Source: Deltaproteobacteria bacterium
GTDB lineage: Bacteria > JADJOY01
Length of the DNA: 64,000 nucleotides
NCBI GenBank assembly: GCA_016713535.1
Contig: JADJOY010000020.1
Location: 42,900-106,899, forward strand
Direction of reading: 5' to 3'
Shown here: in pieces, positions 37,361 through 56,580 of the stretch
Position numbering within the stretch: position 1 is the first letter of the stretch
Layout: every line of letters begins with the position of its first letter
The notes under the pieces: model-generated
Told to the model about the DNA's origin: nothing
Database searches by the model: none
The model's input: the letters and a program-made list of their open reading frames with translations, nothing else
Program-made: the position numbers and the translations under genes

Positions 37361-37378
37361 GTTTTTCGGGGGGCTGTT

Positions 37379-37603
37379 CCAGCCCCCCGCCCGCCGGGAG
37401 TGAATCCCGGCGGGGCCCACCCCCGAGGCACTCGCTGCGCTCGTGGCGTCGCGCTGCGACGCGCAGAGTGCCAAGTCCACCCGTGGCGCGAGCCGGCCGA
37501 GTGGCTTCGCGCTCGAGCACGTTCCAGCCCCCCGCCCGCCGGGAGTGAATCCCGGCGGGGCCCACCCGAGGCACTCGCTACGCTCGTGGCGTCGCGCTGC
37601 GAC
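37379..37603 (+). repeat. Two tandem copies of an approximately 88-bp hairpin element (family B: CCAGCCCCCCGCCCGCCGGGAGTGAATCCCGGCGGGGCCCACCC...GAGGCACTCGCTGCGCTCGTGGCGTCGCGCTGCGACG)
   Basis: Direct duplication visible at about 37379-37466 and about 37511-37603. Each copy contains the stem CCCGCCGGG/CCCGGCGGG. Confidence 0.7.
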
Positions 37604-37760
37604 GGGGGATGGAACCCCCGTCGCTACGATCCTCTTCGTAGCGCGGGGGGCTCCGCCCCCCCGCGGCGCGTCGCTCTCGCGCGATTGCTTCACGGGCCCG
37701 AGGGGAGGAGCACGCGTTGCGTGCCCGGCGATACGCGAGGGCGTCGCAGCGACGGTCCCG
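37601..37760 (+). repeat. REP-like three-hairpin element, family A (GACGGGGGATGGAACCCCCGTC / GCTACGATCCTCTTCGTAGC / CGCGGGGGGCTCCGCCCCCCCGCG) plus tail module
   Basis: Hairpin order is the reverse complement of the 20545-20625 copy. The tail matches 27820-27900 and 41292-41330. Confidence 0.7.
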
Positions 37761-37777: not shown

Positions 37778-38857
37778 TCACACTCGTGATCGCGGCCGCC
37801 ACCCTCGGAGATCGACGAACCGGTACGCCCCGGAGAGCCGCCGCCCGGCGCGCATCGCGGCTCGCGCCGACGGCTCGTTGCCCTCGACGACGTGGCCGTA
37901 GAGGACCGCGTCGTCGGGTGCGTCGACCAGGTCGGCCATGCGCCGGTGGACGTGCGCCGCGAGGCCCCGTCCTCGCGCCGCCGCCGTGAGCGCGGCCTCG
38001 AGCACGCACAGGCCGTCGAAGAAGAGCTCGCTCGTCGGCGTGTAGGCGAACAACCCCGCCCACTCGCCGTCGAGGTGCACCTCCACGACCAACCCGTTCC
38101 GCGCCGCAGCCGAGAGGTCGTCTTGCTCCTCGTGCCACACCGAGCGTGGCCGATGGATCGGCGATCGACCTCGTAGCTCTTCGTAGACCTCGCGGTAGCG
38201 CGCGTAGCTGTCGCTCGAGACCGCCTCGACGCGCGTCACCTCGATCGCGGTTGAGCTCGGCGGTAGCTCGACCGAGCGGAGCTGCCCGAGGGTGGCGGCG
38301 AAGATGCGCACGTCACACGCGACGCGACGGTGACTGAGCGCGCGCAGCTCGCCGTCGTCGGGGTCGAAGATCCGGATCGCGCGCGGCGCCAGGTGGGCAT
38401 AGGCGTCCGCGAGCGCGCGCTCGACGATCTCCCAGCCGTTGCGGTCCACGATCGAGATGGTCGAGTGGTCGATCTGGACGAACGGCCAGTCGAGGTCGCC
38501 GCCGCGAAACCTGAGCGACGTCACCAGCCACTGCGCCACTCCGATCGGCAGCAGCTTGAACGCGTAGTCCTCGAGCTCGGCGCCGGCGAGCGGACAGGCG
38601 CGGCGGAACTCGCGCGCGAACTCGATGTTCGCGACGCGCGCCAGGTCCTCGCGCACCTGCCGCTCCGCTGCATCCCGCAGCCGCCGCGGGGCGACCTCGT
38701 GACGCAGCCACGCCGGCGCGAGTCCGAGCTGGCGCTCGACGCAGCCGTCCACCAGCGTCTCGCTGACGCTCCAGCTCGCGTGCATGTCGATATCGTAGCC
38801 CCAAGTCGCGACCCGCGCTCTCGGCAGGATTTGCGGGATCGCGCCGTCGGGTGACAC
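37778..38857 (-). CDS. Two-domain protein with a C-terminal GNAT-type acetyltransferase fold, hypothetical
   Basis: C-terminal ...LYGHVVEGNEPSARAAMRAGRRLSGAYRF is GNAT-like. The start may be M1 (38857) or M25 (38785). Confidence 0.6.
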   Translation of the reverse strand: MSPDGAIPQILPRARVATWGYDIDMHASWSVSETLVDGCVERQLGLAPAWLRHEVAPRRLRDAAERQVREDLARVANIEFAREFRRACPLAGAELEDYAFKLLPIGVAQWLVTSLRFRGGDLDWPFVQIDHSTISIVDRNGWEIVERALADAYAHLAPRAIRIFDPDDGELRALSHRRVACDVRIFAATLGQLRSVELPPSSTAIEVTRVEAVSSDSYARYREVYEELRGRSPIHRPRSVWHEEQDDLSAAARNGLVVEVHLDGEWAGLFAYTPTSELFFDGLCVLEAALTAAARGRGLAAHVHRRMADLVDAPDDAVLYGHVVEGNEPSARAAMRAGRRLSGAYRFVDLRGWRPRSRV

Positions 38858-38910
38858 GCTCGCCGGCTCGCGGCGGGGCGGTCCCCGCCACGCGGGAGGA
38901 GGAGCCCGTC

Positions 38911-39495
38911 ATGGACGTGAGGCCAGTCACCCTCGAAGGTCGCTTCGTGTCGCTGGTGCCCATGGAGGCCGCTCACGCCGACGCGTTCGTGGAGATCGGC
39001 CTCGGCCACGACCTCTTCCGGTGGTACCCGTGGGCGGTCGAGACCGAGCCCGACATGCGCGAGTTCATCGCGCGGATCCTGCGCTTCCGCGACGAGGGCA
39101 CGTGGCTGCCGTTCACGACGATCGACCGCGCGAGTGGACGCATCGCCGGCTCCACGAGCTTCCTCGCCATCGACCGCGGCCACCGTCGCCTCGAGATCGG
39201 CTCCACCTGGCTCGCGCCCGAGTGGCAGCGCACCCGCTGCAACACCGAGGCGAAGTACCTCCAGCTCCGCCACTGCTTCGAGGACCTCGGCTGCGTCCGC
39301 GTCGAGTTCAAGACCGACTCGCTGAACGAGCGCTCGCGCGCAGCGCTGCTCAGGATCGGTGCGGTCGAGGAAGGCACCTTCCGGAACCACATGATCTGCC
39401 CGGGGCCGCGCCTCCGGCACAGCGTCTACTTCAGCGTCATCGACTCGGACTGGCCCGCCGTGAAGCGCCAGCTCGAGGACAAGCTCGCGCGGTAG
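38911..39495 (+). CDS. GNAT-family N-acetyltransferase (RimJ/RimL-like)
   Basis: SD GGGAGGAGGAG. MDVRPVTLEGRFVSL..., with typical acetyltransf_3 architecture. Confidence 0.85.
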   Translation: MDVRPVTLEGRFVSLVPMEAAHADAFVEIGLGHDLFRWYPWAVETEPDMREFIARILRFRDEGTWLPFTTIDRASGRIAGSTSFLAIDRGHRRLEIGSTWLAPEWQRTRCNTEAKYLQLRHCFEDLGCVRVEFKTDSLNERSRAALLRIGAVEEGTFRNHMICPGPRLRHSVYFSVIDSDWPAVKRQLEDKLAR

Positions 39496-39596
39496 AGGCC
39501 GTCGGCGGGGCGCGCGGCTGCGCTCCTGCCGAGACGCGACGACTCCCCCGCCCGAGCGGGTACCCGGGAGACTCGACGCACCAACTTAAAGAGTGA

Positions 39597-39632
39597 CTTG
39601 TCAGTTTGTTTTCGTGTTGCTAGGATCGCGGA
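39597..39632 (+). promoter_or_regulatory. Sigma70-like promoter (TTGTCA-N17-TAGGAT) with embedded TGAC-tt-GTCA palindrome (candidate TetR operator). It predicts a leaderless tetR mRNA.
   Basis: The -35 and -10 hexamers are 17 nt apart. The ATG at 39634 lies about 8-10 nt after the -10, leaving no room for an SD. Confidence 0.4.
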
Positions 39633-39633
39633 C

Positions 39634-40314
39634 ATGAAGACGTCCACCATGGCGGCCGCCCGCACGGTTTCCCCCGCGGCACGCAGGGCTCCCGCGGCGC
39701 GCCGCCGCACCCAGGCCGAGCGTCGCGCGACCACGCGCGCGCGCCTCCTCGAGGCGGCACTCGATGCGCTCGTCGAGCACGGCTACGCGGGCTTCACCAC
39801 GACGGTCGTGGGCAAGACCGCGGGCCTCAGCCAGGGCGCCCTGTTCCTCCACTTCCCGACCAAGTCCGTGCTGCTCGCCGCCACCATCGAGCATCTCTTC
39901 CTCGACATGGTGAGCGCCTACGAGAAGCGCTTCGCGCGCCTCGACGGAGCCCGCGACCGCCTCACCAGCGCGCTCGAGCTGCTGTGGGACGTGTTCCAGG
40001 ATCCGCGGCTCCTCGCCGCCTTCGAGCTCTTCACCGCGTCGCGCACCGACGGCGAGCTGCGCGCCAGCCTGGCCCCCGTCCTCGCCCGCCACGGCGAGAA
40101 CCTGCGCGCCGTCGCGGCGGCGCTGCTCCCGGAGGCGGCGGCGCAGCCGGAGCGCTTCGAGCTCTGCGTCGGCCTCGTGATGATGGCCATGCAGGGCATG
40201 GCGCTGAGCTCGATCGTGGAGCCGGCGAGCGACCGCGCCCGCCCGGCGATCCCCTTCCTCACCGAGGCCTACCACCGCCTGCTCGCGCCCGCGCCATCGC
40301 GGGCCGGACGCTGA
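39634..40314 (+). CDS. TetR/AcrR-family transcriptional regulator
   Basis: N-terminal HTH (RATTRARLLEAALDALVEHGYAGFTTTVVGKTAGLSQGALFLHFPTK). Confidence 0.85.
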   Translation: MKTSTMAAARTVSPAARRAPAARRRTQAERRATTRARLLEAALDALVEHGYAGFTTTVVGKTAGLSQGALFLHFPTKSVLLAATIEHLFLDMVSAYEKRFARLDGARDRLTSALELLWDVFQDPRLLAAFELFTASRTDGELRASLAPVLARHGENLRAVAAALLPEAAAQPERFELCVGLVMMAMQGMALSSIVEPASDRARPAIPFLTEAYHRLLAPAPSRAGR

Positions 40315-40351
40315 CCCCACCGACCTCGCCCCCCGAACCACGAAGGCCGCC

Positions 40352-41222
40352 ATGCAAAGCAACCCGATCTACTACGCCATCCCGTTCTTCTTCGCGACCA
40401 TGCTCGGCGAGGCGCTCTGGCTGCGCCGCGACCGCAGTCGCGGACGTCCCTACGAGACCCGCGACACCGCGGCGAGCCTGTCGATGGGTGTGGGCTACCT
40501 GGTGGTGGCGCTCTTCTGGAAAGGGGTCGAGCTCGCGATCTTCTCGGCCTTCTACCAGGTCCGGCTCTTCGATCCCAGGTACCGGTCCGTGGGCGTGGCT
40601 GGCGGTGATGATCGGCTGGGACCTCTGCTACTACGCCTACCATCGCGCAGGACACGTGGTGCGGCTCTTCTGGGCCACGCACGTGAACCACCACTCGAGC
40701 CAGCGCTACAACCTCTCGACCGCGCTGCGCCAGACCTGGACGCCCTACCTCGGCTTCGTCTTCTACGTGCCGCTCGCGATCCTCGGCTTCCGCCCCGAGA
40801 TGATCCTGATCGCGGGCGCCTGGAACCTGCTCTACCAGTACTGGATCCACACCGAGGTGGTCGATCGCCTACCGGCGTGGTTCGAGGCGGTCTTCAACAC
40901 GCCGTCCCACCACCGCGTCCACCACGGCACCAACGCCGAGTACCTCGACAGGAACTACGCCGGGATCCTGATCGTGTGGGACAAGATGTTCGGCACCTTC
41001 GAGCCCGAGGTGGCGCGGCCGATCTACGGACTCACCAAGAACATCGAGACGTACAATCCGGTGGACGTGGCCTTCCACGAATGGCGGGCGATGTTCCGCG
41101 ACGTCGCGCGCGCGACGCGCTGGACGGACCGCCTCCACCTGCTGTTCAGCCACCCCGGCTGGAAGCCAGCGGGCGTGTCGAGCGCCGACGAGCTCGCCTC
41201 GCTTCCCAGCGCGGCGGCCTGA
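40352..41222 (+). CDS. Fatty-acid hydroxylase / sterol-desaturase superfamily membrane protein (His-box); apparent frameshift near 40570
   Basis: His boxes HRAGH, HVNHHSS and HHRVHHG lie in the frame of ORF 39984..41222. The N-terminal TM region (MQSNPIYYAIPFFFATMLGEALWL...) lies in the 40352 frame. Confidence 0.75.
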
Positions 41223-41249
41223 CGCGTCGTCATCGGACCGCCGGAGCCG

Positions 41250-41330
41250 ATCCATCGTTTTCGTGGCGCGGGGGGCTCCGTCCCCCCGCGGCGCTTCGCT
41301 CTTGCCCGAGGTCTTCACGGCCTCTCCGTC
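41250..41330 (+). repeat. Partial REP family A copy (hairpin CGCGGGGGGCTCCGTCCCCCCGCG plus tail)
   Basis: Aligns with 37643-37700. Confidence 0.5.
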
Positions 41331-41378
41331 GGGCCGCTCCACCTCCGAGTCCTCGCGGCGGCGCGAACGGTTCCCCTC

Positions 41379-41807
41379 TCAGCCGTCCGGCACCACGACC
41401 ACGACGTTGTTGCCGTTTTGATTCGGGAACCCGGTCGCGAGCCAGTAGGTGAACTCGATCCGGATCCGGTAGCGCCCGGGGGCCGCGTCGTCGTGGGCCC
41501 TCACCGCGACGTTCGCCGAGCACTCGTGCGAGCCCGACTTGCCCAGGCCGTGGATGGCCACGTCGAGCTCCGCGAGCGCCGTCTGGGTGTCGAAGTTGCC
41601 GAGGTCCGGAAACGCGAGCAGGCACTCGAGCACGTCGCGGATGCCGTCGTGACCGTTCGACGTGTCGACTCGCAGCACCAGCTCCGCTTCCTCGCCAGGC
41701 GCGAGCTCGAGCTCCGCCCGCGGCTCGTCGTTGTCACCACACGAAGGGAGAGCGAGCGCCGCGAGTGCCCCGACCGTCGCCGCCGCGATCCGCGCGCGCC
41801 GTCTCAT
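41379..41807 (-). CDS. Small lipoprotein (lipobox LPSC), hypothetical; last gene of the Phe/Tyr operon
   Basis: MRRRARIAAATVGALAALALPSC. ATGA overlap with the maiA stop. Confidence 0.55.
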   Translation of the reverse strand: MRRRARIAAATVGALAALALPSCGDNDEPRAELELAPGEEAELVLRVDTSNGHDGIRDVLECLLAFPDLGNFDTQTALAELDVAIHGLGKSGSHECSANVAVRAHDDAAPGRYRIRIEFTYWLATGFPNQNGNNVVVVVPDG

Positions 41808-42445
41808 GGCCGGGCATCCGGCTGCTGGTCGGGGTGCGCCTTCTGGAAGGACTCGAGCGCCAGGCACTCGGCCTCGATCCGGGTGAGGGTCGGAAAGGCT
41901 TCCAGATCGCACTCCACGCGGCGTGCGTTGCCGAGCTGCGGCACCAGCAGCACGTCGGCCATCGTCACCCGATCTCCGTGGCAGAACCGTCCCGTCGACG
42001 GGCTGCGCGCCACCAGCTCCTCGAACGCCGCGAGACCCGCCGTCATCCAGTGACGGAACCACGTGAGGCGCTCCTCCTCGGTGTGACCGAGCTTCTCGAT
42101 CAGGTAGAGACCGACGCGGGTGTTCTGGAGCGGGTGGACGTCACACGCGATCAGGTCCGCGAGCGCCCGCACCCGCGCCCGTTCGTGAGGCGGCGTGGGC
42201 AGGAGCGGCGGCGAGGGATGTGTCTCCTCGAGGTACTCGAGGATCGCGAGCGACTGGTGGAAGAGCCGGTCGCCATCCACGAGCGTCGGCACCAGGCCCT
42301 GCGGGTTCACGTCACGGTACCTCGCGTCGAGCTGCTCGCCCGCGAGCAGATTGATCGGAACGACCTCGAAGGGGATGCCCTTGTGGTGGAGCGCGATCCG
42401 CACCCGGTAGACCGCCGACGACCGCCAGTACCCGTAGAGCTTCAT
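41804..42445 (-). CDS. maiA: Maleylacetoacetate isomerase (zeta-class GST)
   Basis: MKLYGYWRSSAVYRVRIAL...GLVPTL...SLAILEYLEE. Typical GST-zeta N-terminus. Confidence 0.9.
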   Translation of the reverse strand: MKLYGYWRSSAVYRVRIALHHKGIPFEVVPINLLAGEQLDARYRDVNPQGLVPTLVDGDRLFHQSLAILEYLEETHPSPPLLPTPPHERARVRALADLIACDVHPLQNTRVGLYLIEKLGHTEEERLTWFRHWMTAGLAAFEELVARSPSTGRFCHGDRVTMADVLLVPQLGNARRVECDLEAFPTLTRIEAECLALESFQKAHPDQQPDARP

Positions 42446-43449
42446 CCGTCCTCCCCCGCCTCGCCGCCGGCGCGCGCCACCACGCGCTGCTCGATGGCAC
42501 CGAAGAGCGAGCGGCCCTGGTGGTCTAGCATCTCGATCCGCACCACATCACCGGGCGCCAGGAACGGCGTGCTCGCCGCGCCCCGGTCGAGGAGCTCGAG
42601 CATCCGCCGCTCCGCGAGGCAACTCGAGCCACGGCTGCGGTCGCGGTTCGAGACGGTACCGGAGCCGAGGATCGTGCCGGCGCCGAGGCGACGCGTGCGC
42701 GCCGCGTGCGCGATCAGCGTCGGGAAGTCGAAGTCCATGTCGGCACCGGCATCCGGGCGGCCGAAGAGGGCCCCGTTCAGGTGCGTCACGAGCGGCGCGT
42801 GAACGCGCCGCCCGTCCCACGCCTCGCCGAGCTCGTCGAGCGTGGCGAACACGGGTGAGAACGCACTCGACGGCTTGCTCTGGAAGAAGCCGAAACCCTT
42901 GGCGAGCTCGGCCGGGATGAGGTTGCGGAGCGAGACGTCGTTGACGAGGCCGATGAGGCGGATCCGCGAGCCGGCCGCCGCCGGCGTCGCACCCCGCGCG
43001 ACGTCGTCCGTCACGACCACCACCTCGGCCTCGAAGTCGAGGCCCCACGCCGGGTCGACGCACTCGATGGGATCGTGCGCCCCGAGCATCGTGTCCGAGC
43101 CGCCCTGGTAGAGCAGCGGGTCGGTACGCAGCTCCGCCGGCAGCTCGACTCCCCTTGCCTTCCGTACCAGCTCGACGTGGTTGAGGTAGGCGCTGCCGTC
43201 CGCCCACTGGTAGGCGCGCGGCAGCGGCGCCGCGAGCTCGGCGGCGTCGAGGTGGAAGACGTCCTCGCCGCGTCCCTCTTCGAGCGCCGCCGCGACCTCC
43301 GCGAGGCGCGGCGCGATCGCGTCCCAGTCGTCGAGGGCGTGCTGGAGCGTGGGACAGAGGTCGAGCGGCGCGACCGCCAGCCGCAGGTCGCGCGACACCA
43401 CGACCAGCGTGCCGTCACGACCGCCGGTGCGCAGACTGCCGAGCTTCAC
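42442..43449 (-). CDS. Fumarylacetoacetate hydrolase (FAH) family protein, probable fumarylacetoacetase of the pathway
   Basis: FAH-fold motifs. GTG start overlaps the hmgA stop as GTGA; its own stop overlaps the maiA ATG. Confidence 0.8.
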   Translation of the reverse strand: MKLGSLRTGGRDGTLVVVSRDLRLAVAPLDLCPTLQHALDDWDAIAPRLAEVAAALEEGRGEDVFHLDAAELAAPLPRAYQWADGSAYLNHVELVRKARGVELPAELRTDPLLYQGGSDTMLGAHDPIECVDPAWGLDFEAEVVVVTDDVARGATPAAAGSRIRLIGLVNDVSLRNLIPAELAKGFGFFQSKPSSAFSPVFATLDELGEAWDGRRVHAPLVTHLNGALFGRPDAGADMDFDFPTLIAHAARTRRLGAGTILGSGTVSNRDRSRGSSCLAERRMLELLDRGAASTPFLAPGDVVRIEMLDHQGRSLFGAIEQRVVARAGGEAGEDG

Positions 43450-44606
43450 CGCGGCGCCGATCCCGGCGGCGCGCCCGCGCCACCCTCCGCTCGCCACGAG
43501 TCCACGTATCCCTCCCACTCCACACCGTCCGGCAGCACCGCGGGACGGAGCGCGTCGCGCGCGTCGATCATCACCGCGACCTCGTCGGTCTCGGCGCGAG
43601 TCCCCCGCTCGGCGGCGGCCAGAGCACTCGGGTGTGGCCCGTGGGTGAAGCCCGCGGGGTGGAAGGTCACCATGCCGGGGTGGACGTGGTCACGGCTCAC
43701 GAACGTGCCGCGATGGTAGAAGAGCACCTCGTCGTAGTCGTCGTTGTTGTGGAAGAAGGGAAGCTTGAGCGCGCCGGGATCGCGCTCGAGCGGCCGCGGC
43801 ACGAACGTGCACACCACGAACCGCTCGCTCACGAAGGTGGTGTGAATGGACGGCGGCAGGTGCATGCGGGCGCTCACGATCGGACGGATGTCGCGCCAGT
43901 TGAGGCGCACCGGCGCGTGATCGCCGTGCCAGCCCACCGCGTCGAGCGGGTTGAACGGGAACGTCACGGTGCTCAGCGCTCCCTGGCGCCGGATCACCAC
44001 GCGCCACACCTCGTCGCGCTGCTGGGCGCGGAAAGCGTCGTCGAGCGCGGGGACGTCGAGGACCGCCGGATCGAAGAGCGCGTGGCGCCCGATCAGCCCT
44101 CGGTCGGGCAACCCGTAGCTATCGCCGGTGGCCTCGACCAGCAGCAGCGTCGCGTCGCCGGCCGGCTCGAGCCTCCACATCGTTCCGCGCGGCAGCACCA
44201 GGTAGTCGCCCTCGCGTAGCGTGAGGTGTCCGTAGTCGCAGAAGAGCTCGCCACCCCCCTCGTGCACGAACAGCAGGTCGTCGCCGTCACCGTTGCGGAT
44301 CAGGCTCTCCATCGCCCCGTCGGTGTGCCACCACCGGATGCGGAGCGCGGCGCTCGCCAGCACCTCGGGCGCGTCCCACGGCGAGCGGCGGCGCGCGCCG
44401 AGCCGGGTGAGGTCGAACGCGCGCGGCCGTAGCGGACCCTCCCAGCTCGTCCAGGCGGTCGGGGGATGACGGTGGTGCATGTGGGTGGCGGCGCCGTAGA
44501 ACCCGTCGCGCCCGAGCTCGCGCTCGAACGTGCCGGCCGGCAGATCGGCGTGCGCCTGGCGCGAGGCCGTCCCCTCGCGGCGCGACGCCGGGAAGCTGCG
44601 CTTCAC
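43446..44606 (-). CDS. hmgA: Homogentisate 1,2-dioxygenase (divergent HmgA type)
   Basis: Bicupin blocks align with HmgA (GDGDDLLFVHEGGGEL...YLVLPRGTMWRL; NPLDAVGWHGDHAP; FFHNNDDYDEVLFYHRG...HPAGFTHGPH). GTG start overlaps the hppD stop. Confidence 0.75.
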   Translation of the reverse strand: MKRSFPASRREGTASRQAHADLPAGTFERELGRDGFYGAATHMHHRHPPTAWTSWEGPLRPRAFDLTRLGARRRSPWDAPEVLASAALRIRWWHTDGAMESLIRNGDGDDLLFVHEGGGELFCDYGHLTLREGDYLVLPRGTMWRLEPAGDATLLLVEATGDSYGLPDRGLIGRHALFDPAVLDVPALDDAFRAQQRDEVWRVVIRRQGALSTVTFPFNPLDAVGWHGDHAPVRLNWRDIRPIVSARMHLPPSIHTTFVSERFVVCTFVPRPLERDPGALKLPFFHNNDDYDEVLFYHRGTFVSRDHVHPGMVTFHPAGFTHGPHPSALAAAERGTRAETDEVAVMIDARDALRPAVLPDGVEWEGYVDSWRAEGGAGAPPGSAPR

Positions 44607-45688
44607 GCGCCGCTCCGGGGTGCCAGCACGCCGCGCTCGATCTGGTCGCGCTCCATCGCCTCGAAGAGCGCGCGGAAGTTCCCCTCGCCGAAGCCCTCGT
44701 CGCCGCGGCGCTCGATGATCTCGAAGAAGATCGGACCGATGACCGCCTCGGTGAAGATCTGCAGCAACAGCCGGCGCTCTCCCTGGGTGACGCCGTCGAC
44801 CAGGATCTGCAGCCGGCGCAGCTCCTCCACGTCGAGCCCGTGGCCCGGCAGCCGCGCGTCGAGGGCGTCGAAGTAGGCGTCGGGAGTGGCGAGGAAGCGC
44901 AGACCTCTCTCGCGCATGGCCCGCACCGTGGCGAAGATGTCGCGGCAGCCGAGCGCCACGTGCTGGATGCCCTCGCCGTGGTAGGCGTCGAGGTACGCCT
45001 GGATCTGCGAGCCACCCTCGGTGGGCTCGTTGACCGGAATGCGGATCTTCCCGCACGGGCTCACGAGCGCGCGGCTCAAGAGCCCCGTGAGCTGGCCGCG
45101 GATGTCGAAGTACCGGATCTCGCGGAAGCCGAAGAGCCGCTCGTAGAACTCGGCCCAGCGGTTCATGCGGCCCTTGAGGACGTTGTGCGTGAGGTGGTCG
45201 ACGTGAGTGAGCCCGACGTCGGCGGGAGGCGCCTCGCCGGTGGGCACGAAGTCGACGTCGTAGATGGTTCGATCCCCGTAGCGGTCGATCAGGTAGATGA
45301 GGCTGCCGCCGATGCCACGGATCGCCGGCAGGTTGAGCTCCATCGGCCCGACTCGCCCGCGCACCGGCTTGGCGCCGAGCGCGACTGCGCGCTCGAAGGC
45401 CCGCGCGGCGTCGCGGACGCGGAACGCGATCGCGCAGATCGAAGGGCCGTGCACGCGCGCGAACGCCTGCGCGAAGCTCGACGGCTCGGCGTCGACCACG
45501 AAGTTGACCCCGCCCTGGCGATAGAGCGTGACGTCCTTCGAGCGGTGGCGGGCCACCGGCACCAGGCCCATCGCGCGGAACAACCCGTCGAGCGCCGTCG
45601 GATCGGTGGTGGCGTATTCGACGAACTCGAAGCCGTCGGTGCCCATCGGGTTGGCGATCGCGTCGCCGGACTGCGCCGGGGCCGGCAC
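44603..45688 (-). CDS. hppD: 4-hydroxyphenylpyruvate dioxygenase
   Basis: Near-collinear with Pseudomonas HPPD (NPMGTDGFEFVEY..., HRSKDVTLYRQG, GPMELNLPAIRGIGGS, IQHVALGCRDI, GFGEGNFRALFEAMERDQ). The proposed start is an internal GTG (VPAPAQSGDAIANPMG). Confidence 0.85.
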   Translation of the reverse strand: MPAPAQSGDAIANPMGTDGFEFVEYATTDPTALDGLFRAMGLVPVARHRSKDVTLYRQGGVNFVVDAEPSSFAQAFARVHGPSICAIAFRVRDAARAFERAVALGAKPVRGRVGPMELNLPAIRGIGGSLIYLIDRYGDRTIYDVDFVPTGEAPPADVGLTHVDHLTHNVLKGRMNRWAEFYERLFGFREIRYFDIRGQLTGLLSRALVSPCGKIRIPVNEPTEGGSQIQAYLDAYHGEGIQHVALGCRDIFATVRAMRERGLRFLATPDAYFDALDARLPGHGLDVEELRRLQILVDGVTQGERRLLLQIFTEAVIGPIFFEIIERRGDEGFGEGNFRALFEAMERDQIERGVLAPRSGA

Positions 45689-47483
45689 CTCGCCGGCGGG
45701 CGAAACCAGCTCGAGCCGCGGGAGCGCCGCGGCAGCGCCGGGCGCGGTCGCGAGGGCGCGTGCGAGGAGCGGCGGGCCCGATTCCCCCGCGGGTGTTCGC
45801 GCCACGAGCGCCTCGAGCTCACCGGCCAGCCCGGCCCGCAGCGCCTCTCCGTCGCCACCGGCCGCGCTCGCGATGCCGAGCAGCTCCCAGCGCAGCAGCC
45901 ACTCGTCGGCATGGCGGCGGCGGAGCGCCCCCGCGATCCGCTGGAGCCCCGGCAACGCGGCCCGCGGATCGCGGTCGTCGGCGAGGGCGCGCGCTTGGCG
46001 ATGGAGCCGGAGCAGGCCGCGCTGGGATGCGGGCCGGCTGCGGCGCGGCGGGAGCCGTCGCGCCGGGAACGACGTCGCGGGCCAGAACCTCGGGTCGGCC
46101 GGACCGGCGAATCCCGCGGTCACGGCGGAGCCGAGCGGCATCACCCACGGCGAGCGTGTGATCGGTAGCGCGAGCGATCCGCGCTTGGCGCTGGCACCCG
46201 CCCACACCAGCGCTACCGGTCGCCCGTCGGGCGCGCGCACCACGTCGACGACGCGGCCGGCGATCGTGACGCCCGAGCGGAATCGCAGCTCGACCGAGCC
46301 CGCCGGGCCAGCCCGCGTCGCGTGGCGTCGCAACCCGTCGCGGTCGAGCGATGCGGGATCGCTGCCGTCCGCGAGCGGACCGAGCGGCAACGCGACCCCG
46401 CCGCGGTGACGGCGCGTCCCTTGGCCGGCGAGCTCGCGATCGTCCCACGCCAGCGCCGCGGGGCCAGCGACCTCGATCCACGCCGGCTCGTCGAGGTCGC
46501 CGCGCACGCGCTCGACCACGCCGGTCACTTCCACCCCCGTGTCGAGCACCAGCGTCGCGACCTCGTGGCTCGCGAGCGCCGCCTCGAGCGCCACCGCGCC
46601 GCCCCGGCGCTGCGCGAGCGTGGCGGTGACCTCGTCGAGCACCTCCTCGAGGTGCTCGAACGAACGCGCCACGAAGAGCTGCGGCTGCGGCCGCGTGATG
46701 TCGTAGCCGACGTCGATGCAGGCCGCCTCGAGCGGGCGCTTTCGCACGGCCGGCGACTGACAGCTCGCGCTCTCGCCCAGCGACGAGAGCAGCCCCGCGC
46801 CGAAGATCCGGAAGTCGTCGAGCTCGCCGACCAGTCCGTACTCGACGGTCCACCAGTGCAGCCGCGCGATGCGCGCCGACTCGCTCAGCCGGCGCGCCCC
46901 CGCGCGCGCCTCCTCGAACGCGCGCTCGGCGCGAGCCCGCTCGTGGGGGGTGGCGCTGGGGTCCTCCTTCACCACCGACAGCTCGTGGATCGCGGTGAAG
47001 AGCCGCCCGTCGCTCGGCAGCGAGAACGCGCGCGCCGATCGCGCCGATCCGCTCGAGGAACCGGCGGTACGCGGCGTCGATCAGGATCGGCGCGTGGCCG
47101 GCAGCCTCGTGGACGATGTCGGGCGCGGGGGTATACGCGAGGTGCTCGGGAGTGCGGACGTCCCCGGCGATCGGCAGGATCGCGTGGGCCTGGAACTCCA
47201 GGAACGCCCTGGGCGGGATGAATCCGTCGACGCACACCGCGCCCCAGCCGAGCTCGCCGAGCCGGCGATCGATCTCGCCGATTCGCGGGATGCGCTCGCG
47301 CGAGATCCCGGTGGCCGCCAACCCCGCCGCATACGCCGGATGGGCAGCGTCGCCGAGCGCTCCCTCGATCTGGCCGAGGATGAAGCGCCACACCGCCTGA
47401 TCGATCTCGTCGTAGGCACGATCGTCGTGTACCGCGACGAAGCGGCGTAGGTGAGCGGGAACTCGTCCGCGCGTGTCGCTCAT
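45689..47483 (-). CDS. phhA: Phenylalanine-4-hydroxylase (PhhA catalytic core, about 47483-46640) followed in frame by a roughly 300-aa uncharacterised coding extension that runs without a stop into hppD. Frameshift near 46940.
   Basis: Aromatic amino-acid hydroxylase motifs YTPAPDIVHEAAGHAPIL (iron ligands), LHWWTVEYGLV, FGAGLLSS and DITRPQPQLFVARSFE. The extension has high GC3. Confidence 0.7.
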
Positions 47484-47633
47484 GGGAGAGAGCCGCGGGG
47501 AATGCGTCGAGCCTGCGCCGTCAGTATGACCGGCCGGACCGGGCACCGCTCGCGTGCGCCATCCGTGACATTCTTGTGACGACCACATCACGGCCGGCGC
47601 CGCCTCGCGGGCGCCCCACGAGAGGGATCCCGG

Positions 47634-48218
47634 ATGGCCTGGACGAAACGCTTCGCCGCGTGCGGCCTGCTCGCGAGCATCTTCTCCCTGCCCGCGTGCG
47701 CCGGTGACGGCGGCTCCTCGTCGAGCTTCCCGCCTGGCGTGCCGAGCGTGGTCTTCGACATCGACGGCACGCTCACGCCAACGCCGGTCAACCTGTTCGG
47801 CGTGCGTCTCGACGCGGCACGCGCGGTCCGGGCGTACGTGGACAAGGGCTACGCAGTGATCTACGCCACGGCGCGGCCGCTGCTCTTCGAGGACTACACC
47901 GGCAACTGGCTCGCGACCAACGGCTTCCCGGACCTACCGCTCCACATGGCCACGCTCGAGCAGAGCGGCGATCCCATCCCCTACAAGACCGCGCTGCTCG
48001 CGGCCCTCGAGCAAGACGAGGGCCGGGTGTTCGTGTACGGCTACGGCGACTCGACCACCGACTTCGCCGCCTACGCCGCGGTCGGGATTCCGGCAGCCGA
48101 GACCTGGGCGCTGCTGCGTGGCGGCGAGAGCGAGTGCCAGCCCGGCGACTACGAGGCGTGCATCCCCGGCTACACCGAGCACCTCGCCTACATCGAGGCC
48201 CAGCCGGACGTCGAGTAG
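47634..48218 (+). CDS. HAD-superfamily phosphatase lipoprotein (lipobox LPAC)
   Basis: HAD motif I VVFDIDGTLT and motif III YGDSTTD. Confidence 0.7.
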   Translation: MAWTKRFAACGLLASIFSLPACAGDGGSSSSFPPGVPSVVFDIDGTLTPTPVNLFGVRLDAARAVRAYVDKGYAVIYATARPLLFEDYTGNWLATNGFPDLPLHMATLEQSGDPIPYKTALLAALEQDEGRVFVYGYGDSTTDFAAYAAVGIPAAETWALLRGGESECQPGDYEACIPGYTEHLAYIEAQPDVE

Positions 48219-48276
48219 CCAGGGGGAAGTGCGCGGCCCGTGGCCTTCGGCGGGCATTCCCCGGAAGCGGGCCGGC

Positions 48277-48345
48277 GACGGGGGATGGAACCCCCGTCGC
48301 TACGATCACCGGCCGTTAGGTCGTCGTAGGGCGGGGCCTCCGCGC
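48277..48345 (+). repeat. REP-like three-hairpin element, family A copy
   Basis: GACGGGGGATGGAACCCCCGTC, GCTACGA...TCGTAGG and GCGGGG-cctccgc-GCCCCCGC, sitting between convergent gene ends. Confidence 0.65.
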
Positions 48346-48352
48346 CCCCGCC

Positions 48353-50098
48353 TCAGAGCTCTTCGAGGAAGACCGGCTCGAAACCGAGCTGGATCGTGAG
48401 CTCGTTACCGGGCGCCGAGAGCGTCTGCGTGGCCGGCGTGGTCTGCCCCGGCGCGGTCACGATCCTGGTGAGCTTCACACTCGCCGTGCCGACCGGGATC
48501 GCCACCGTCTCGCCGTTCGGCACCGCTGGATCCGCCGGAACCGGCCCGGCCTCGCTCCACGCCACGTACACCGGGCCGCCGCTCGGACGATCGAACTTGT
48601 AGACGCGCGTGAGGGGGTTGGCGCTCACGCCGAGCCGGTTCACCGCGGTCATCGACTGCAGCTCGTCCACCAGCAGCTTCATCGTGTAGTAGACGGGCTT
48701 GGTGGCGTAGTTGGTGGCCTTGGTGCCGAGCAGGTGCGAGTAGCCGAACCACCCGAAGATCGCCTGCTGGTCGAGGCACGACGTCAGGAACTGGTAGGCG
48801 CACGGGTCGTTGGATCCCGAGAACGACACGCGCTCGGCGCCCGCGCCGAGCGCGGTCGTGAACGACTTGACCGCTCCCCGCGCGCCCTTGGCGTTGTACC
48901 AGTTCACGATCGTGGCGTTGTTGGCCTTCAGCCCGTCGGCGAGGGTCACGTAGTCGGGGACCGTGGCGTTCGGGAAGTCACCCTCGATCTGCTCGCCGCC
49001 GATGAACTCGGTCCAGCCACCGAGCGGCGAGGTGCGCGCGAACATGTTGGACCACATGTCGTCCACGAAGATCGGCTTGGACGGCGCGTACTGCTGGATC
49101 AGCGCCAGGCTCTGATCGATGGCGCGCCAGCCGTTGTGCGGGTGCCACTCGATGTAGTCGCACTTGATGCCGTCGGAGTCGTCGCCGAGGGCGGTCAGGA
49201 GCTGGACCAACCCGTCGAAGCCGGCGCGGAAGATCGCGCCCTTGGGATTGGCGCCGTCGAGGCGTGCGGACACCGTGCTGCCCGGTCCGGGGTTGGAGGC
49301 GGGGTAGTTCGGGAAGTCGGAGTAGAGGTCGAAGAGCAGGCCGCCGCTGCCGACCAGCTTCGAGAGGCCGCTGGGGTCGGCCTCGTGGATGGCCTCGTAG
49401 GTGATCTCGTGGAGGCGGATCAGGTTGGGGATCGAATCGTCCCAGAAGCCGTAGCCGAGGGCCTCCGCGTAGTCGCCGCTGCCCTCGGTCCCCTCGAACG
49501 CGACCTCTTGGTCCATCACGTAGAACTCGATCGGGACCGTGAGGCCCGGCATGTCTTCGAGCCCGTCGCCGTCGTAGCGCTCGACGACGGCCTTGATGTA
49601 GTCCTTCCAGGCCTGCTCGTGGGCGGCGTCGGGCGCGCAGTCGTCGATGCCCGGACCATCGACGCAGTCGGGGTTCGCGAGCTGCGACCACGCCGCGGTG
49701 GGGCGCAGGTTCCACACCACCGAGAAGCCCTTGGCGCCGATCGTCTGCACCGGCGGATCGGACTGGCTGAAGTCGTAGGGCGAGGTGGGCGTGGGCTGCA
49801 TGGTGGCCCAGCCGCCGCCGATCTCGTTGACGTTGACCCCACCGCGCACCGGCTGGTTGGCGGTGACCACCGCCAGCTTGTCGAGGAGGGTGGCGTGCTG
49901 TGCCGGCGTGACCGTGGGCGCGAAGAGCTCCCAGTACTCGAAGCCGAACCGCCACGGCGGCACCACCGACGTCCCCGGGCCGTTCGAAGCGGTGGCTCCC
50001 GGCGCGACGATCAACGTCGCCGCCGCCACCAGCCCCGCGCCCGCCCCCGCGAGCATTCCCGCCCGCGTCACCATCCGTACCCAGCTCCGCCGCTTCAT
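48353..50098 (-). CDS. Secreted TIM-barrel glycoside-hydrolase-like protein (family not assigned)
   Basis: Signal peptide MKRRSWVRMVTRAGMLAGAGAGLVAAATLIVAPGATAS. Long coding-like body. The upstream 230 codons of the ORF are junk. Confidence 0.65.
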   Translation of the reverse strand: MKRRSWVRMVTRAGMLAGAGAGLVAAATLIVAPGATASNGPGTSVVPPWRFGFEYWELFAPTVTPAQHATLLDKLAVVTANQPVRGGVNVNEIGGGWATMQPTPTSPYDFSQSDPPVQTIGAKGFSVVWNLRPTAAWSQLANPDCVDGPGIDDCAPDAAHEQAWKDYIKAVVERYDGDGLEDMPGLTVPIEFYVMDQEVAFEGTEGSGDYAEALGYGFWDDSIPNLIRLHEITYEAIHEADPSGLSKLVGSGGLLFDLYSDFPNYPASNPGPGSTVSARLDGANPKGAIFRAGFDGLVQLLTALGDDSDGIKCDYIEWHPHNGWRAIDQSLALIQQYAPSKPIFVDDMWSNMFARTSPLGGWTEFIGGEQIEGDFPNATVPDYVTLADGLKANNATIVNWYNAKGARGAVKSFTTALGAGAERVSFSGSNDPCAYQFLTSCLDQQAIFGWFGYSHLLGTKATNYATKPVYYTMKLLVDELQSMTAVNRLGVSANPLTRVYKFDRPSGGPVYVAWSEAGPVPADPAVPNGETVAIPVGTASVKLTRIVTAPGQTTPATQTLSAPGNELTIQLGFEPVFLEEL

Positions 50099-50284
50099 TC
50101 GCCCCTCATCCGGCCGTGGTTCGTCGATCCGTTCGCGAGTCGAACCGAAATCCCTCGGCCGGCGTACAGCATACGCCGCGGCCCGGTTGGCCCGCATCCT
50201 CGACGACGGGAATACGGGCCGTCCCGTGGACCGGTTCGAACGCGCTTTGGTACGCTCCACGTCACCTCCTGGAGGGGACCACCC

Positions 50285-51788
50285 ATGAAGCTGGCTTCCT
50301 CGGCGCTCCGGCGCGCGCTCGGCGTCCTCCTCCTGCTCGTTCTCGTGCCGTGCACGGCGGGCGCGACCACCCACTGGGCGAAGCTCGCGCCCGGGGACGG
50401 CCAGCAATTCGACACCTTCGGGCTCGCGGTCGCGATCGACGGCGACACCATCATCGTCTCGAAGGGCACCGTGATCCCGCAGTCGGGACCGGGCTGGCTC
50501 TACGCGTTCACGCGCAGCGGCGGGAAGTGGACCCAGGCGCAGAAGTTCCAGCCGAGCGGCATCCAGCCAGGCGAGTGGTTCGGCGCCCTCGACCTGGAGG
50601 GCACGACACTGGTGGGCTCGAGCGCGCCGCAGCTCAACACGCTCGGCTCGAACGCCGCCTCGGCCTACGTGTTCGAGAAGAGCGGCTCGACGTGGGCGGC
50701 CACCCAGAAGCTCCCCCTCCGATCCGGGCGCGCAGGACGACTTCGGCTCGTGGATCGCGGTGAGCGGCACCACGCTGGCGGTGGGTGCCGGGCGCAAGGC
50801 CGATCAGGGGCTCGGCTCGGGCGCGGTGTACGTGTTCGAGAAGGGCGGCACCGGCTGGACCCAGACCCAGAAGCTCGTGGCGGGCGATGGCACCCAGGGC
50901 GCGATGTTCGGCACCAGCGTCGACATCGACGGCTCGACGATCGTGGTCGGCGCACCCGGTGATCCCAGCCACGGCAACCTCACCGGCGCGGTGTACGTCT
51001 TCCAGAAGACCTCGGGCGTGTGGAACCAGACCCAGAAGCTGATCGCGAGCGACGCCACCGCGAACCAGTTCCTCGGCGACCGGGTGGCGCTCTCCGGCAC
51101 CTCGCTGGTGGCGAGCGCCTGGGGTACCGCCACCCAGGGCAACACCGCGGGCGCGGTGTACGCGTGGGAGCTGGCGAGCGGCAGCTTCGCTCAGAGCCAG
51201 AAGATCATCCCCGCCGACACCGGCGCCCAGGACCGCTTCGGCGCCGCGCTGGCGCTGAAGAACGGAAGCCTCGTGGTCGGCGCGGTCGGCGACGACGACC
51301 GCGGCCCCAACACCGGCGCGGCCTACGTCTTCACCAAGCCGGGTGCGACGTGGACGCAGCTCGAGAAGCTCACCGCGTCGGACAGCACCAGCGACGAGGA
51401 CTACGCGGCCGCCGTGGCGACCAACGGCAACTGGATGGTGGTGGCGGCGGACGCCAACGGCCTCGGGCTGGTCGGCTCCTCCTACGTCTACGGCAAGACC
51501 GACGCCGACGGCGACGGCTACCCGGTCGAGGTCGACTGCCTCGACACCAACGCGAACGTGAACCCCGGTAAGACCGAGGTCCCCAACAACGGGATCGACG
51601 ACGACTGCAACGCTGCCACCCCCGATACGACTGGCTGCGGCCGCGTCGCCGGCGGCATGACCGGTGGCGCGGTGCCGTTCGCGGTGGCAGCCGTGGGGCT
51701 GGCCGCCGTGCGGTTCGGCTTCCGCCGCCGCCCTCGCCCAGCCGACCGATGGAGCGCCGGCAGGTTGGGTGTGCCGAGGGCGCAGTAG
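50285..51788 (+). CDS. Secreted FG-GAP repeat protein with MopE-type motif and MYXO-CTERM tag; frameshift near 50720 at CCCCC
   Basis: MKLASSALRRALGVLLLLVLVPCTAGA. Repeated GSAYVFEKSG..W motifs. C-terminus NNGIDDDCNAATPDTTGCGRVAGGMTGGAVPFAVAAVGLAAVRFGFRRRPRP. Confidence 0.75.
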
Positions 51789-51818
51789 GTGACCGGAGCA
51801 GTAGGTGACACGTAGAAG

Positions 51819-52139
51819 GTGACACTCATTTTGCCGAGTCGTAAACGACGAGAGCCTGCGGACGGAGCCTCAGGGAAACCCAGATTCATTTCCTCGTTAC
51901 TCGCTACGTGTGCGGCGGTCGGGGGGTTGGTCATCATCGTGCCGTTGATCGATCGATACCTTGTTGCTCTCTCATTGGACGTCTCGATGCTGCCCTTCAT
52001 GCCTGGCGCTCTCCTCGTGTCGATGTTGGGAGGTGACGCCCTTGATATCAGCCGGATGCAGATCTTTGCAGCAAACGTCCCGGTGTACACGCTTGTCGTT
52101 CACATTGTTCGCCTCGCCCTGTATCAGCGGCACGCATAG
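51819..52139 (+). CDS. Small 2-TM membrane protein of foreign codon usage, hypothetical
   Basis: GTG start lies inside the GGTGACACTCAT repeat. GC3 is low, so the coding call is uncertain. Confidence 0.3.
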   Translation: MTLILPSRKRREPADGASGKPRFISSLLATCAAVGGLVIIVPLIDRYLVALSLDVSMLPFMPGALLVSMLGGDALDISRMQIFAANVPVYTLVVHIVRLALYQRHA

Positions 52140-52417
52140 CCCTCGGGAGGGTTCCGCTCGCCTTCCCCACGGTGCCAATCGGGATCGCGCGCAATAGGTG
52201 ACACTCATCTCCTCCTCGTCCGTCCAGGAGCTGCTTGGCCACGGTACCGTCGCCACGCCGGATCCGCACTTCGAACTCACCATCACCGATCTCGAGGAAG
52301 CGCACGCGAGGTATCATCCGAGGAAGCGGGCCGATGGGCTGACCCGCCCGCGTTGAGAGCCTTGGATCCCGCCGCTACACTCGAACCTTGGCGTCCGCAT
52401 CCAAGGAGACACCGGCC

Positions 52418-52640
52418 ATGATCTTCCACGTCGTACTCGAGCCACCCGATGATCGCGGGTGGATCGTGGTGCGGTGCCCAGCGCTGCCGGGTTGTGTATC
52501 GCAGGGCAAGACGGAGAAGGAGGCCCTCGAAATATCAAGGAGGCGATCGTCGGCTGGCTCCACGTCGAGGATCAACGAGCGATCGCGGCCGAGCCTCGCA
52601 AGGGGAGCCGCTGGTTCCCATCGCCGTCGCAGTGTGAACG
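52418..52640 (+). pseudogene. hicB: HicB-family (UPF0150) antitoxin, disrupted by a 1-bp frameshift near 52535 (gaaatatc, expected gaaaatatc)
   Basis: SD AAGGAG. MIFHVVLEPPDDRGWIVVRCPALPGCVSQGKTEKEALE, then in the +2 frame NIKEAIVGWLHVEDQ..., restoring the HicB consensus EALENIKEAI. Confidence 0.55.
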
Positions 52641-52644
52641 CGAC

Positions 52645-52866
52645 GTGGGCAAGCTCGGAAACATCTCAGCGAAAGAAGCGGTGAAGGCATTCCGTCGAGC
52701 AGGCTGGCGACCGTCGATCCAAGTCGGGAGCCATCCCACCCTCATCAAGCCCGGTCACCGGGCGCATCTTTCGATCCCGATGCACCGCGAGCTTGCCGTG
52801 GGCACGCTGCGATCGCTCATCCGCGACGCGGAGATGACAGTCGACGAGTTTCTCGCGCTCCTTTGA
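52645..52866 (+). CDS. hicA: HicA-family mRNA-interferase toxin
   Basis: ...AKEAVKAFRRAGWRPSIQVGSHPTLIKPGHRAHLSIPMHRELAVGTLRSLIRDAEMTVDEFLALL matches the HicA/YcfA fold consensus (GW...GSHH...P.H..ei..gtl..i...agl). The start is uncertain (GTG 52645 or 52678). Confidence 0.6.
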   Translation: MGKLGNISAKEAVKAFRRAGWRPSIQVGSHPTLIKPGHRAHLSIPMHRELAVGTLRSLIRDAEMTVDEFLALL

Positions 52867-53044
52867 CCGCTGCTGCCAGGGCGGCGGCCCCCGGGAGGGC
52901 CACCAGCAGTCGGCGTCGTGGGGCCACCTGCGATGATCGCGAACGATCGAGCGCAGAACGTCAGGTTGGGGACCCGCGTAACGCGAAGCCGACGCCCCTG
53001 GAGCGTGTGAAGGCCCGTCTGGGCCTCTGAGCCGCGCCGTTACC

Positions 53045-54721
53045 TCAGCCTCCGAAGTACGTGGCGACGTACCGGTCCATCTCGGCGGTGGGCTTCCACC
53101 ACTTCTTGACGCCCAGGTCGTCCGCAACCCGGTTCGCGCCGAGATAGCCCCCGCCGCCGAGGACGCCTCCGCCCGGATAGTTGGACGCACCCGCGGTGTA
53201 GAGGCCCGGGATCGGCGTGATGCTGCTCGAGCACTCCTGGTTGGGCCGGAAGCAGCCGAGCTGGATCGGCAGGTAGTCGCCGTGCTTGATGGCGCCGCGG
53301 CGCATGTTGGGGAAGCGGATCTCGATGTCGACCGGTGTCTCCTGGTGGGTCATGACGATGTTCTCGCGGCGCATGTTGGGCGCGTAGCGCGCCCAGCGCG
53401 CGAGCATCGCGTCCTCGATCGCCGCGCCGCGCGCCTCCCAGCCGCCTTCGAGGTCGTAGGGCGCGTGCATCTGCAGGAACGCCACCTTGCGGTGCGCGCG
53501 CGACGGCGGGACCCGCACCAGGTGGCTGTCCCAGCTGCTCTCGCAGGTCGCGTGGCCGCCGAGCGCCGCCGGGTCGAGCTTGCCGGCGATGACGTTGTCC
53601 CAATGCGCGAGGAGCTGTGCCGAGCCCTCGAAGCCGAGGATGGTCATGAACGCCTCGCTCGCCCACGGATCCTTGGGGAGGTAGCGCGGCGCCTCCTCGG
53701 CGACGACGTGCAAGGTGTCGAAGCTCCACTTGTCGTACTTCCAGCCGCTGACGGCGGTGTGGAGCTCGCTCGGCAGGTTGCCGCCACCCACCAGATCGAG
53801 GAACGTCGTGTGCGGGTCGAGGGTGGAGATCACCACGTCGCTGAAGAGCGTGCGTCCCTCCCACAGCTCCACGCCCGCCACGCGGCCGTTGCGGAGCAGG
53901 ATCTTATCGACCTGCGACGAGTCGAGGATCAGCCCGCCGGCGCGCACGAACTCGCGCGCGAGCGCGCCCGCGAGCTTGTGCGAGCCGCCCTGGCAGTAGC
54001 ACTTGTTCATCAGCCGATCGAGGTAGAGCGGAACGAAGAGCCCGAGCCCGGTCTCGCGCGGATCGAGCCCCCACATGCACACGTGGTAGAGGAGGAACGC
54101 ACGGATGCGGTCGTTCTCGAACAGGCTCTCGATGACGTCGAGGGGGCTGCGTTCGACCAGCTCGAGGAGCTCGCGACCTTCGGCGGTCTTCTGGAACGCC
54201 ACGCTGATGTCGATGGGCGCGAGCGGCGGCAGGTACGTCGCGGGCGCGATGATCTCGCGCACGATCTTGCGCCAACGCCCCATCGTGCGGCTGAAGGTGT
54301 CGGCGTCCTTCACCGAGAACTTCATGAACGAGTCGGCGGTGTCCTCGATCATGCGCGTCAGCAGCAGCGACTCGCCGTTCTCGAACACCATCGAGCTCTG
54401 CAGGTTCGGCTTGATCCACACCAGCCCGTGCTTGGCGAGATCGAAGTCCCTGAGCGCCGGCATGTAGTCGACCATCATGTGGTAGATGGCGTGCATGTTC
54501 GAGTAGTAGCCGGGGAACAGGATCTCCTCGGTCGCGAGCCCCCCACCGATCTCGTAGCGCCGCTCGACCAGCGCCACCTTGAGCCCGGCGCGCGCGAGGT
54601 AGGCGGCGGCGATCAGACCGTTGTGTCCCGCTCCGATCACGACGACGTCCCAGCGGCTCTCGGGAGGGAACTCCTCGAAGAAGCTCTGGGGATGCTGAAA
54701 ACCCTTGAACTCGTGCGGCAT
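53045..54721 (-). CDS. NAD(P)/FAD-dependent oxidoreductase, phytoene-desaturase (CrtI)-like family, paralog 1
   Basis: VVVIGAGHNGLIAAAYLARAGLKVALVERR, with amine-oxidase/CrtI-like architecture. Confidence 0.85.
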   Translation of the reverse strand: MPHEFKGFQHPQSFFEEFPPESRWDVVVIGAGHNGLIAAAYLARAGLKVALVERRYEIGGGLATEEILFPGYYSNMHAIYHMMVDYMPALRDFDLAKHGLVWIKPNLQSSMVFENGESLLLTRMIEDTADSFMKFSVKDADTFSRTMGRWRKIVREIIAPATYLPPLAPIDISVAFQKTAEGRELLELVERSPLDVIESLFENDRIRAFLLYHVCMWGLDPRETGLGLFVPLYLDRLMNKCYCQGGSHKLAGALAREFVRAGGLILDSSQVDKILLRNGRVAGVELWEGRTLFSDVVISTLDPHTTFLDLVGGGNLPSELHTAVSGWKYDKWSFDTLHVVAEEAPRYLPKDPWASEAFMTILGFEGSAQLLAHWDNVIAGKLDPAALGGHATCESSWDSHLVRVPPSRAHRKVAFLQMHAPYDLEGGWEARGAAIEDAMLARWARYAPNMRRENIVMTHQETPVDIEIRFPNMRRGAIKHGDYLPIQLGCFRPNQECSSSITPIPGLYTAGASNYPGGGVLGGGGYLGANRVADDLGVKKWWKPTAEMDRYVATYFGG

Positions 54722-54744
54722 GGCCCATCCCTCCTCGGGGGTGC

Positions 54745-56484: not shown

Positions 56485-56580
56485 CGCTCGTCCCTCGTTC
56501 CGATCCCGTCGTGCGGCGCACCAAGCGCCCTGCGGATGCCTCGCTCACCCGTTCGATCGGCGGCGTTCCCGGGCCCCATC

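Follow-up and report, generated by a model that had tools for sequence, protein, structure and literature searches.

A predicted fusion of phenylalanine hydroxylase and 4-hydroxyphenylpyruvate dioxygenase at the head of a homogentisate-pathway operon in a Deltaproteobacteria metagenome assembly

In a 64,000-nucleotide (nt) stretch of contig JADJOY010000020.1 (positions 42,900 to 106,899; assembly GCA_016713535.1, Deltaproteobacteria bacterium), hereafter the window, an operon for phenylalanine and tyrosine catabolism opens with phhA, for phenylalanine hydroxylase (PhhA), running without a stop codon into hppD, for 4-hydroxyphenylpyruvate dioxygenase (HppD). Does this locus encode one bifunctional enzyme, a hydroxylase with a novel extra domain, or two ordinary enzymes separated by a stop that an error-prone assembly has missed? 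These were the choices left by the original prediction, which was made from the sequence alone. We conclude, with good though not complete confidence, that the locus encodes a single bifunctional polypeptide of 960 residues, which would lead a homogentisate-pathway operon whose cistrons are coupled in translation. All operon genes lie on the minus strand of the window, whose GC content is about 72%.

As the sequence stands, no 960-residue product can be translated from the phhA start, contrary to what had been proposed, because the reading frame switches inside phhA. The interval 47483..44603 measures 2881 nt, which is not divisible by 3. From ATG 47483, the frame in which position mod 3 = 2 yields about 152 sensible codons and then Arg/Ala/Gly nonsense up to a stop at 45819, and a 790-residue open reading frame (ORF; 44603..46975, starting at GTG 46975) occupies the frame in which position mod 3 = 1. 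The Pfam Biopterin_H match is split over the two frames: the first carries profile positions 98-190, the second 200-291. The switch maps to 47025/47026 both in a plot by frame of GC content at third codon positions (GC3) and in a codon-position Viterbi segmentation, and GC3 is at coding level on either side of it. Codons 1-152 (47028..47483), whose GC3 peaks in the first of these frames, encode the N-terminal half of the catalytic domain with the iron-ligand motif HEAAGH. The C-terminal half (46607..47026, second frame) contains the HWWTVEYG motif, keeps the family-invariant residues and aligns with long PhhA homologues. The stretch 46500-45720, in which two frames are similar in GC3, was considered for a second frame change, and this was ruled out: the alternative frame gives stops and nonsense, and homologues can be aligned to the retained frame over the whole stretch.

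Two other assemblies carry the fusion intact. For database searches we used as the query the hydroxylase corrected by restoring two bases. One cluster recovered contains the window's own annotated product (P0001; MBK7975374.1, 789 residues, 'MAG: 4-hydroxyphenylpyruvate dioxygenase [Deltaproteobacteria bacterium]', where MAG stands for metagenome-assembled genome) and, within the same 90% identity cluster, an intact PhhA-HppD protein of 960 residues (P0303) from a JGI metagenome contig (L082). P0303 is identical to the window translation over residues 1-152 and, after the 2-nt correction, differs from the whole of it at one position (E/A), in the HppD part. The second intact protein (P0002), of 932 residues and about 63% identity, has both Biopterin_H and HPPD domains and lies on an NCBI MAG contig (L001), where hmgA-like and FAH genes come next, in the synteny and with the 4-base-pair (bp) overlaps seen in the window. 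Between P0303 or the window and P0002, identity amounts to 69% in the catalytic domain, 47% in the C-terminal region of the hydroxylase and 83% in HppD; the family-invariant hydroxylase residues, including HEAAGH and WWTVEYG, are aligned and kept in both fusions. Alignment to both contigs also located the frame break at 47027..47035, where a (GC)n run falls 2 nt short of its counterparts in these relatives. The site reads GGCGCGCGCG/TTCTCG; against L001 the gap falls as GCGCGCG--TTCTCG opposite GCGCGCGCCTTCTCG, and against L082 it is placed at window position 47026. The idea of a bifunctional enzyme is thus supported by two intact fusions in independent assemblies, but only with a 2-nt correction that the original prediction had missed.

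The hydroxylase module belongs to a known family along its whole length. The corrected protein scores 544.9 bits (cutoff 346) against NF010657 ('aromatic amino acid hydroxylase', 580 positions), with residues 7-561 aligned on profile positions 6-557, and its residues 6-540 match the 592-residue phenylalanine hydroxylase of Bacillus cereus ATCC 14579 (PDB 7VGM; E=2.2e-113). H125, H130 and E215 fall in alignment columns that are invariant, both fusions included; they correspond to the established 2-His-1-carboxylate iron ligands of phenylalanine hydroxylases (HExxGH ... W(W/F)TxE(Y/F)G). From its sequence, the module is predicted to be a pterin-dependent hydroxylase of the long type that acts on aromatic amino acids (phenylalanine).

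This membership also accounts for what had looked like an extra domain. Roughly as predicted, the catalytic core ends where the Biopterin_H match does, near 46607, and about 300 further codons of high GC3, among them those for the peptide VTIAGRVVDVVRAPDGRPVALVWAG, continue without a stop into hppD. This '300-codon extension' (45733..46606), however, is not novel, because both NF010657 and 7VGM cover it. By itself it matches 7VGM residues 294-536 (phmmer, E=2.7e-15). An AlphaFold model of the extension (predicted local distance difference test score 89.9) consists mostly of beta-strands followed by five helices, and 7VGM was its sole strong match in a Foldseek search of the PDB (E=2.4e-19), next to weak matches of about 68 residues to Sm-like barrels (E ~0.02). 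Homologues of 570-600 residues number in the thousands. The extension is the usual C-terminal region, of about 280 residues, of a known and structurally solved family of long hydroxylases; our literature search found no description of the role of this region. Catalytic domain and C-terminal region align end to end with that family (NF010657/PRK14056; 7VGM). The fusion differs from its members, which end about 20 residues past the last helix, in that the chain runs on into HppD without a stop, and the window copy differs further in being frameshifted: an uninterrupted ORF of the NF010657 type, absent from the window, is intact in L082 and L001.

The HppD module (44603..45646, up to its TGA stop) is equally conventional. 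It scores 387.5 bits (cutoff 277) against TIGR01263 over profile positions 2-353 of 353, matches Pfam Glyoxalase_5 (E=5e-61) and aligns full-length with the Pseudomonas fluorescens enzyme (PDB 1CJX; E=6e-127). It contains DHLTHN, GIQHVA and FFEIIER, which correspond to the iron-ligand motifs of HPPD. Full-length similarity to bacterial HPPD notwithstanding, the module departs from stand-alone enzymes of about 350-390 residues in having no start or ribosome-binding site of its own and in being preceded by some 610 residues of hydroxylase and linker. An HPPD-like module C-terminal to another enzyme of an aromatic pathway is also found in 3-dehydroshikimate dehydratases of the QuiC type (NF042435; PDB 5HMQ), although there the N-terminal partner is a different one. 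Our HppD matches NF042435 over profile positions 293-626 with a score of 239, and since the cutoff is 1200, the fusion is not a QuiC member.

Proteins with this pair of domains are very rare. A comparison of the 932-residue fusion with 5.8 billion clusters at 90% identity returned only the P0001 and P0002 clusters as containing both domains. Among the best 150 matches of an exhaustive HMMER search of 1.84 billion representatives at 50% identity none exceeded 678 residues, although such representatives can hide fusion members, as happens with P0002 itself. Neither GTDB species genomes nor JGI metagenome contigs yielded a further fusion when scanned. Across about 15 billion predicted proteins, the architecture is hardly ever present, and the fusions found come from a small set of uncultured bacteria that are Myxococcota-like. 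The literature we searched contained no description of a PhhA-HppD fusion. From these sequence comparisons, we regard it as a genuine, rare and apparently undescribed architecture assembled from known enzymes.

The same scans found many adjacent but separate pairs. A long phhA precedes hppD in Cyclobacteriaceae (L002, L070) and in a Myxococcota MAG (L003, up to 68% identity), and elsewhere the order is hppD followed by phhA, in its long or short form. The modules of the fusion have the same order and orientation as the unfused genes of L002, L070, L003 and the metagenome contig L083, and some of these pairs share a downstream hmgA-like gene; unlike in the fusion, however, each pair consists of two ORFs. 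In L003, phhA and hppD overlap as ATGA, with GGGAGG upstream. In L083 the two genes share a frame and only one TGA divides them; after it come AGGAGG, 6 nt and the ATG. One point mutation or small indel would turn either arrangement into a fusion, making them plausible precursor states.

The two modules meet at a junction (45647..45732), a linker of about 28 codons that includes GTG 45688, the internal hppD start noted in the original prediction. It contains no stop, is open and in frame in the three assemblies (window, L082 and L001), and shows no sequence resembling a Shine-Dalgarno before GTG 45688 or ATG 45646, nor at the matching position of L001, where unfused relatives have GGGAGG or AGGAGG. 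Even so, a continuous ORF might still be expressed as two proteins, if HppD came mainly from ribosomes starting internally, at GTG 45688 or ATG 45646, or were cut free by proteolysis in the linker. Reading through would then be neutral, a side effect of the tight coupling in translation. Several observations count in this direction and against a single product. Both the in-frame GTG and the conserved ATG are present, making free HppD from internal initiation possible, and in DNA of 72% GC an open stretch of about 28 codons could plausibly arise by chance. The linker is poorly conserved, as an unconstrained tether would be: those of the two fusions are wholly different and not homologous, and P0002 lacks the last 30-40 residues or so of the hydroxylase C-terminus, so that fusion may have happened twice, independently, or the junction may be under loose constraint. 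Conversely, neither start has a Shine-Dalgarno in the window or L001, unlike the strong ones of unfused relatives; the in-frame architecture has been retained across lineages that are about 63% identical; and any ribosome that initiates at phhA must translate through HppD, because that frame has no stop. We consider separate proteins unlikely, and a single polypeptide the better account of the junction.

The frame break inside phhA raises a different alternative, namely that the strain has suffered a real 2-bp deletion, in which strand slippage removed a GC unit. In that case the hydroxylase module here would be a pseudogene, with the His ligands and the Glu ligand on separate frames, and only HppD would still be made, from the 790-residue ORF starting at GTG 46975 or from an internal start. 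The frameshift is, after all, present in the sequence as given, and NCBI annotates the 789-residue ORF as a protein (MBK7975374.1). The comparison with L082 (JGI 3300056625, Ga0558121_10141), which is 99.5% identical to window positions 38221-57475 (19.3 kb), is informative in both directions. The two sequences are 67 substitutions apart, so that they represent distinct strains or populations, and differ by 18 small indels, mostly in homopolymers or short repeats, with 11 gaps on the window side and 7 on the L082 side. These 7 gaps, together with an FG-GAP gene called as two pieces in L082, mean that L082 may carry indels of its own, and neither assembly is therefore a gold standard.

Breaks of this kind are, however, common in the window. 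Segmentation revealed at least six further same-strand frame breaks in the 64 kb (near 2354, 4408, 6075, 13893, 40597 and 50719, plus strand), in which protein sense carries on in a new frame without a stop or start. Two of them interrupt the gene for a Ser/Thr-kinase/TPR/GAF/sigma-54 activator. The others affect genes for a repeat protein, for a TPR-like protein, for a membrane protein resembling fatty-acid hydroxylases and for an FG-GAP repeat protein, in which the break falls inside an FG-GAP-like repeat unit (YVFEKSGSTWAATQKL / SDPGAQDDFGSWIAVSG). With about one frame-breaking indel per 9 kb, the contig appears indel-prone. All three breaks covered by L082 (47026, 50713 and 40577) are intact there, each corresponding to a 1-2-nt difference, and the intact genes at 47026 and 40577 are also among the L082 gene calls. 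Such a density of breaks in conserved-looking genes, including the sigma-54 activator, the kinase/TPR and the fatty-acid hydroxylase-like genes, suits assembly indels far better than mass pseudogenization, and GC3 remains at coding level on both flanks of the phhA break. Because at least six other breaks occur in the window and the comparable ones are absent from L082, the phhA frameshift is probably an artefact, with an assembly indel error as the most likely cause of the 2-nt deficit at 47027-47035; a true deletion seems quite improbable to us. GenBank protein accessions of the MBK79 range probably belong to long-read activated-sludge MAGs. We also considered whether the (GC)n run serves phase variation or programmed frameshifting, and ruled this out: the run has only 4-5 units, there are many unrelated breaks, and the relatives are single-frame.

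That the absent PhhA/HppD stop is itself the assembly error, the genes being separate as in most bacteria, is highly improbable despite an assembly that is demonstrably indel-prone, since the error lies within phhA and not at the junction, three independent assemblies agree on an open junction with no stop after the PhhA core in the corrected sequence, and, with all three minus-strand frames free of stops over 45819-45646, correcting an indel could not bring in a stop ahead of HppD.

Downstream of the fusion, the rest of the operon is ordinary, and its gene order and coordinates hold as first described: phhA-hppD, an hmgA-like gene, a FAH-family gene, maiA and a small lipoprotein-like ORF. Successive genes are joined by four 4-bp start/stop overlaps, also as described (GTGA at 44606/44603 and 43449/43446, ATGA at 42445/42442 and 41807/41804). 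The hmgA-like gene (43446..44606, 386 residues), whose start overlaps the hppD stop, encodes a divergent, short protein resembling homogentisate 1,2-dioxygenase. It scores above the cutoff for Pfam HgmA_N (63.5 bits, cutoff 20.2) and below that of the TIGR01015 equivalog (79.9 bits, cutoff 510.75), and matches homogentisate dioxygenases in the PDB with E=7e-18; a function as homogentisate dioxygenase is suggested by the operon context. Likewise, context points to fumarylacetoacetase specificity for the FAH-family protein (42442..43449, 335 residues), which has the Pfam domains FAA_hydro_N_2 and FAA_hydrolase and matched no equivalog in an NCBIfam profile search. The next gene, maiA (41804..42445, 213 residues), is a maleylacetoacetate isomerase gene, with 282 bits (cutoff 171) over the full-length TIGR01262 profile. 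The last ORF (41379..41807, 142 residues) has a signal-peptide-like N-terminus, MRRRARIAAATVGALAALALPSCG, in which a lipobox-like ...ALALPSC is discernible by eye only; no Pfam or NCBIfam profile matched it, and it is kept, and gene-called, in L082.

The hmgA-like and FAH genes had been regarded as swapped relative to the pathway, but it is the FAH and maiA genes that are out of pathway order, and the arrangement is canonical: the hmgABC genes of Pseudomonas putida U likewise run dioxygenase, hydrolase, isomerase (PMC3053370). The window operon differs from hmgABC in starting with phhA-hppD, in having a 4-bp overlap at every junction, and in its divergent short HmgA and terminal lipoprotein-like ORF. 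A consensus scan of positions 41000-48000 revealed no promoter or terminator sites, and the operon boundaries are consequently based on gene spacing alone. A crude motif scan of the window found no pterin-4a-carbinolamine dehydratase motif.

Genes flank the operon on both sides. A gene for 194 residues (47634-48218, plus strand) is divergent from it, with a weak LNS2/acid-phosphatase-like Pfam match and a position that is kept in L001 and L082. Convergent to the 3' end of the operon are genes for a TetR-family regulator and a fatty-acid hydroxylase/sterol desaturase-like protein (39598-41222, plus strand; 16263-17850 in L082), the latter being the gene frameshifted at ~40577 in the window.

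Three other regions were noted in the course of the analysis. The stretch at ~51613-53052 (4543-5066 in L082) is without the usual coding GC3 signal and, according to L082 gene calls, contains a HicA toxin/HicB antitoxin pair; several of the indels between the window and L082 cluster there, and it may be a small inserted island. Between 37365-37604 and positions 19250-19498 of L082, the alignment breaks into short repeated matches of 92-96% identity, which suggests a tandem or duplicated segment whose copy number differs between the assemblies. Lastly, a repeat protein that looks secreted has, in its C-terminal part, a long Gly/Ser/Asp repeat of low complexity (GGGGGGGSDDGSDD...; 6397-6917, plus strand), which the frame model labels 'non-coding' owing to its odd composition.

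How, then, would a single-polypeptide locus work, and how might it have arisen? Translation from ATG 47483 would produce one chain in which some 28 linker residues connect two independent Fe(II) modules, and four cistrons coupled to it in translation would follow. Judged by the invariant residues kept and by the profile scores, both modules appear functional. Each retaining its own Fe(II) site, they would catalyse the conversion of phenylalanine to tyrosine and of 4-hydroxyphenylpyruvate to homogentisate. An aminotransferase step stands between these activities and, with no aminotransferase encoded in the operon, would be supplied from outside it. Because the two activities are non-consecutive, stoichiometric co-production is favoured over channelling, and the benefit is likely to be fixed 1:1 co-expression and co-localization, not direct transfer of substrate. 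As for origin, an adjacent, tightly coupled phhA-hppD pair may have lost the phhA stop, the hppD ribosome-binding site decaying after fusion.

For users of this assembly, the public protein record of the MAG (789 residues, 4-hydroxyphenylpyruvate dioxygenase) is the truncated product of a frameshifted fusion gene, and the rate of frame-breaking indels should be borne in mind. Speculatively, one uncultured Myxococcota-like lineage could express a bifunctional phenylalanine hydroxylase/4-hydroxyphenylpyruvate dioxygenase of about 105 kDa, tethering the hydroxylase through its C-terminal region to the HPPD oligomer; such a protein might organize a phenylalanine-to-homogentisate metabolon that recruits the aminotransferase. 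In this locus two iron enzymes from the same pathway, both known, come together in an architecture that we have not found described; the biochemistry is that expected of them, and the biological impact would be modest. The case would also illustrate, in nature, how cistrons that overlap and are tightly coupled become a fusion gene, with intermediates still visible in its relatives.

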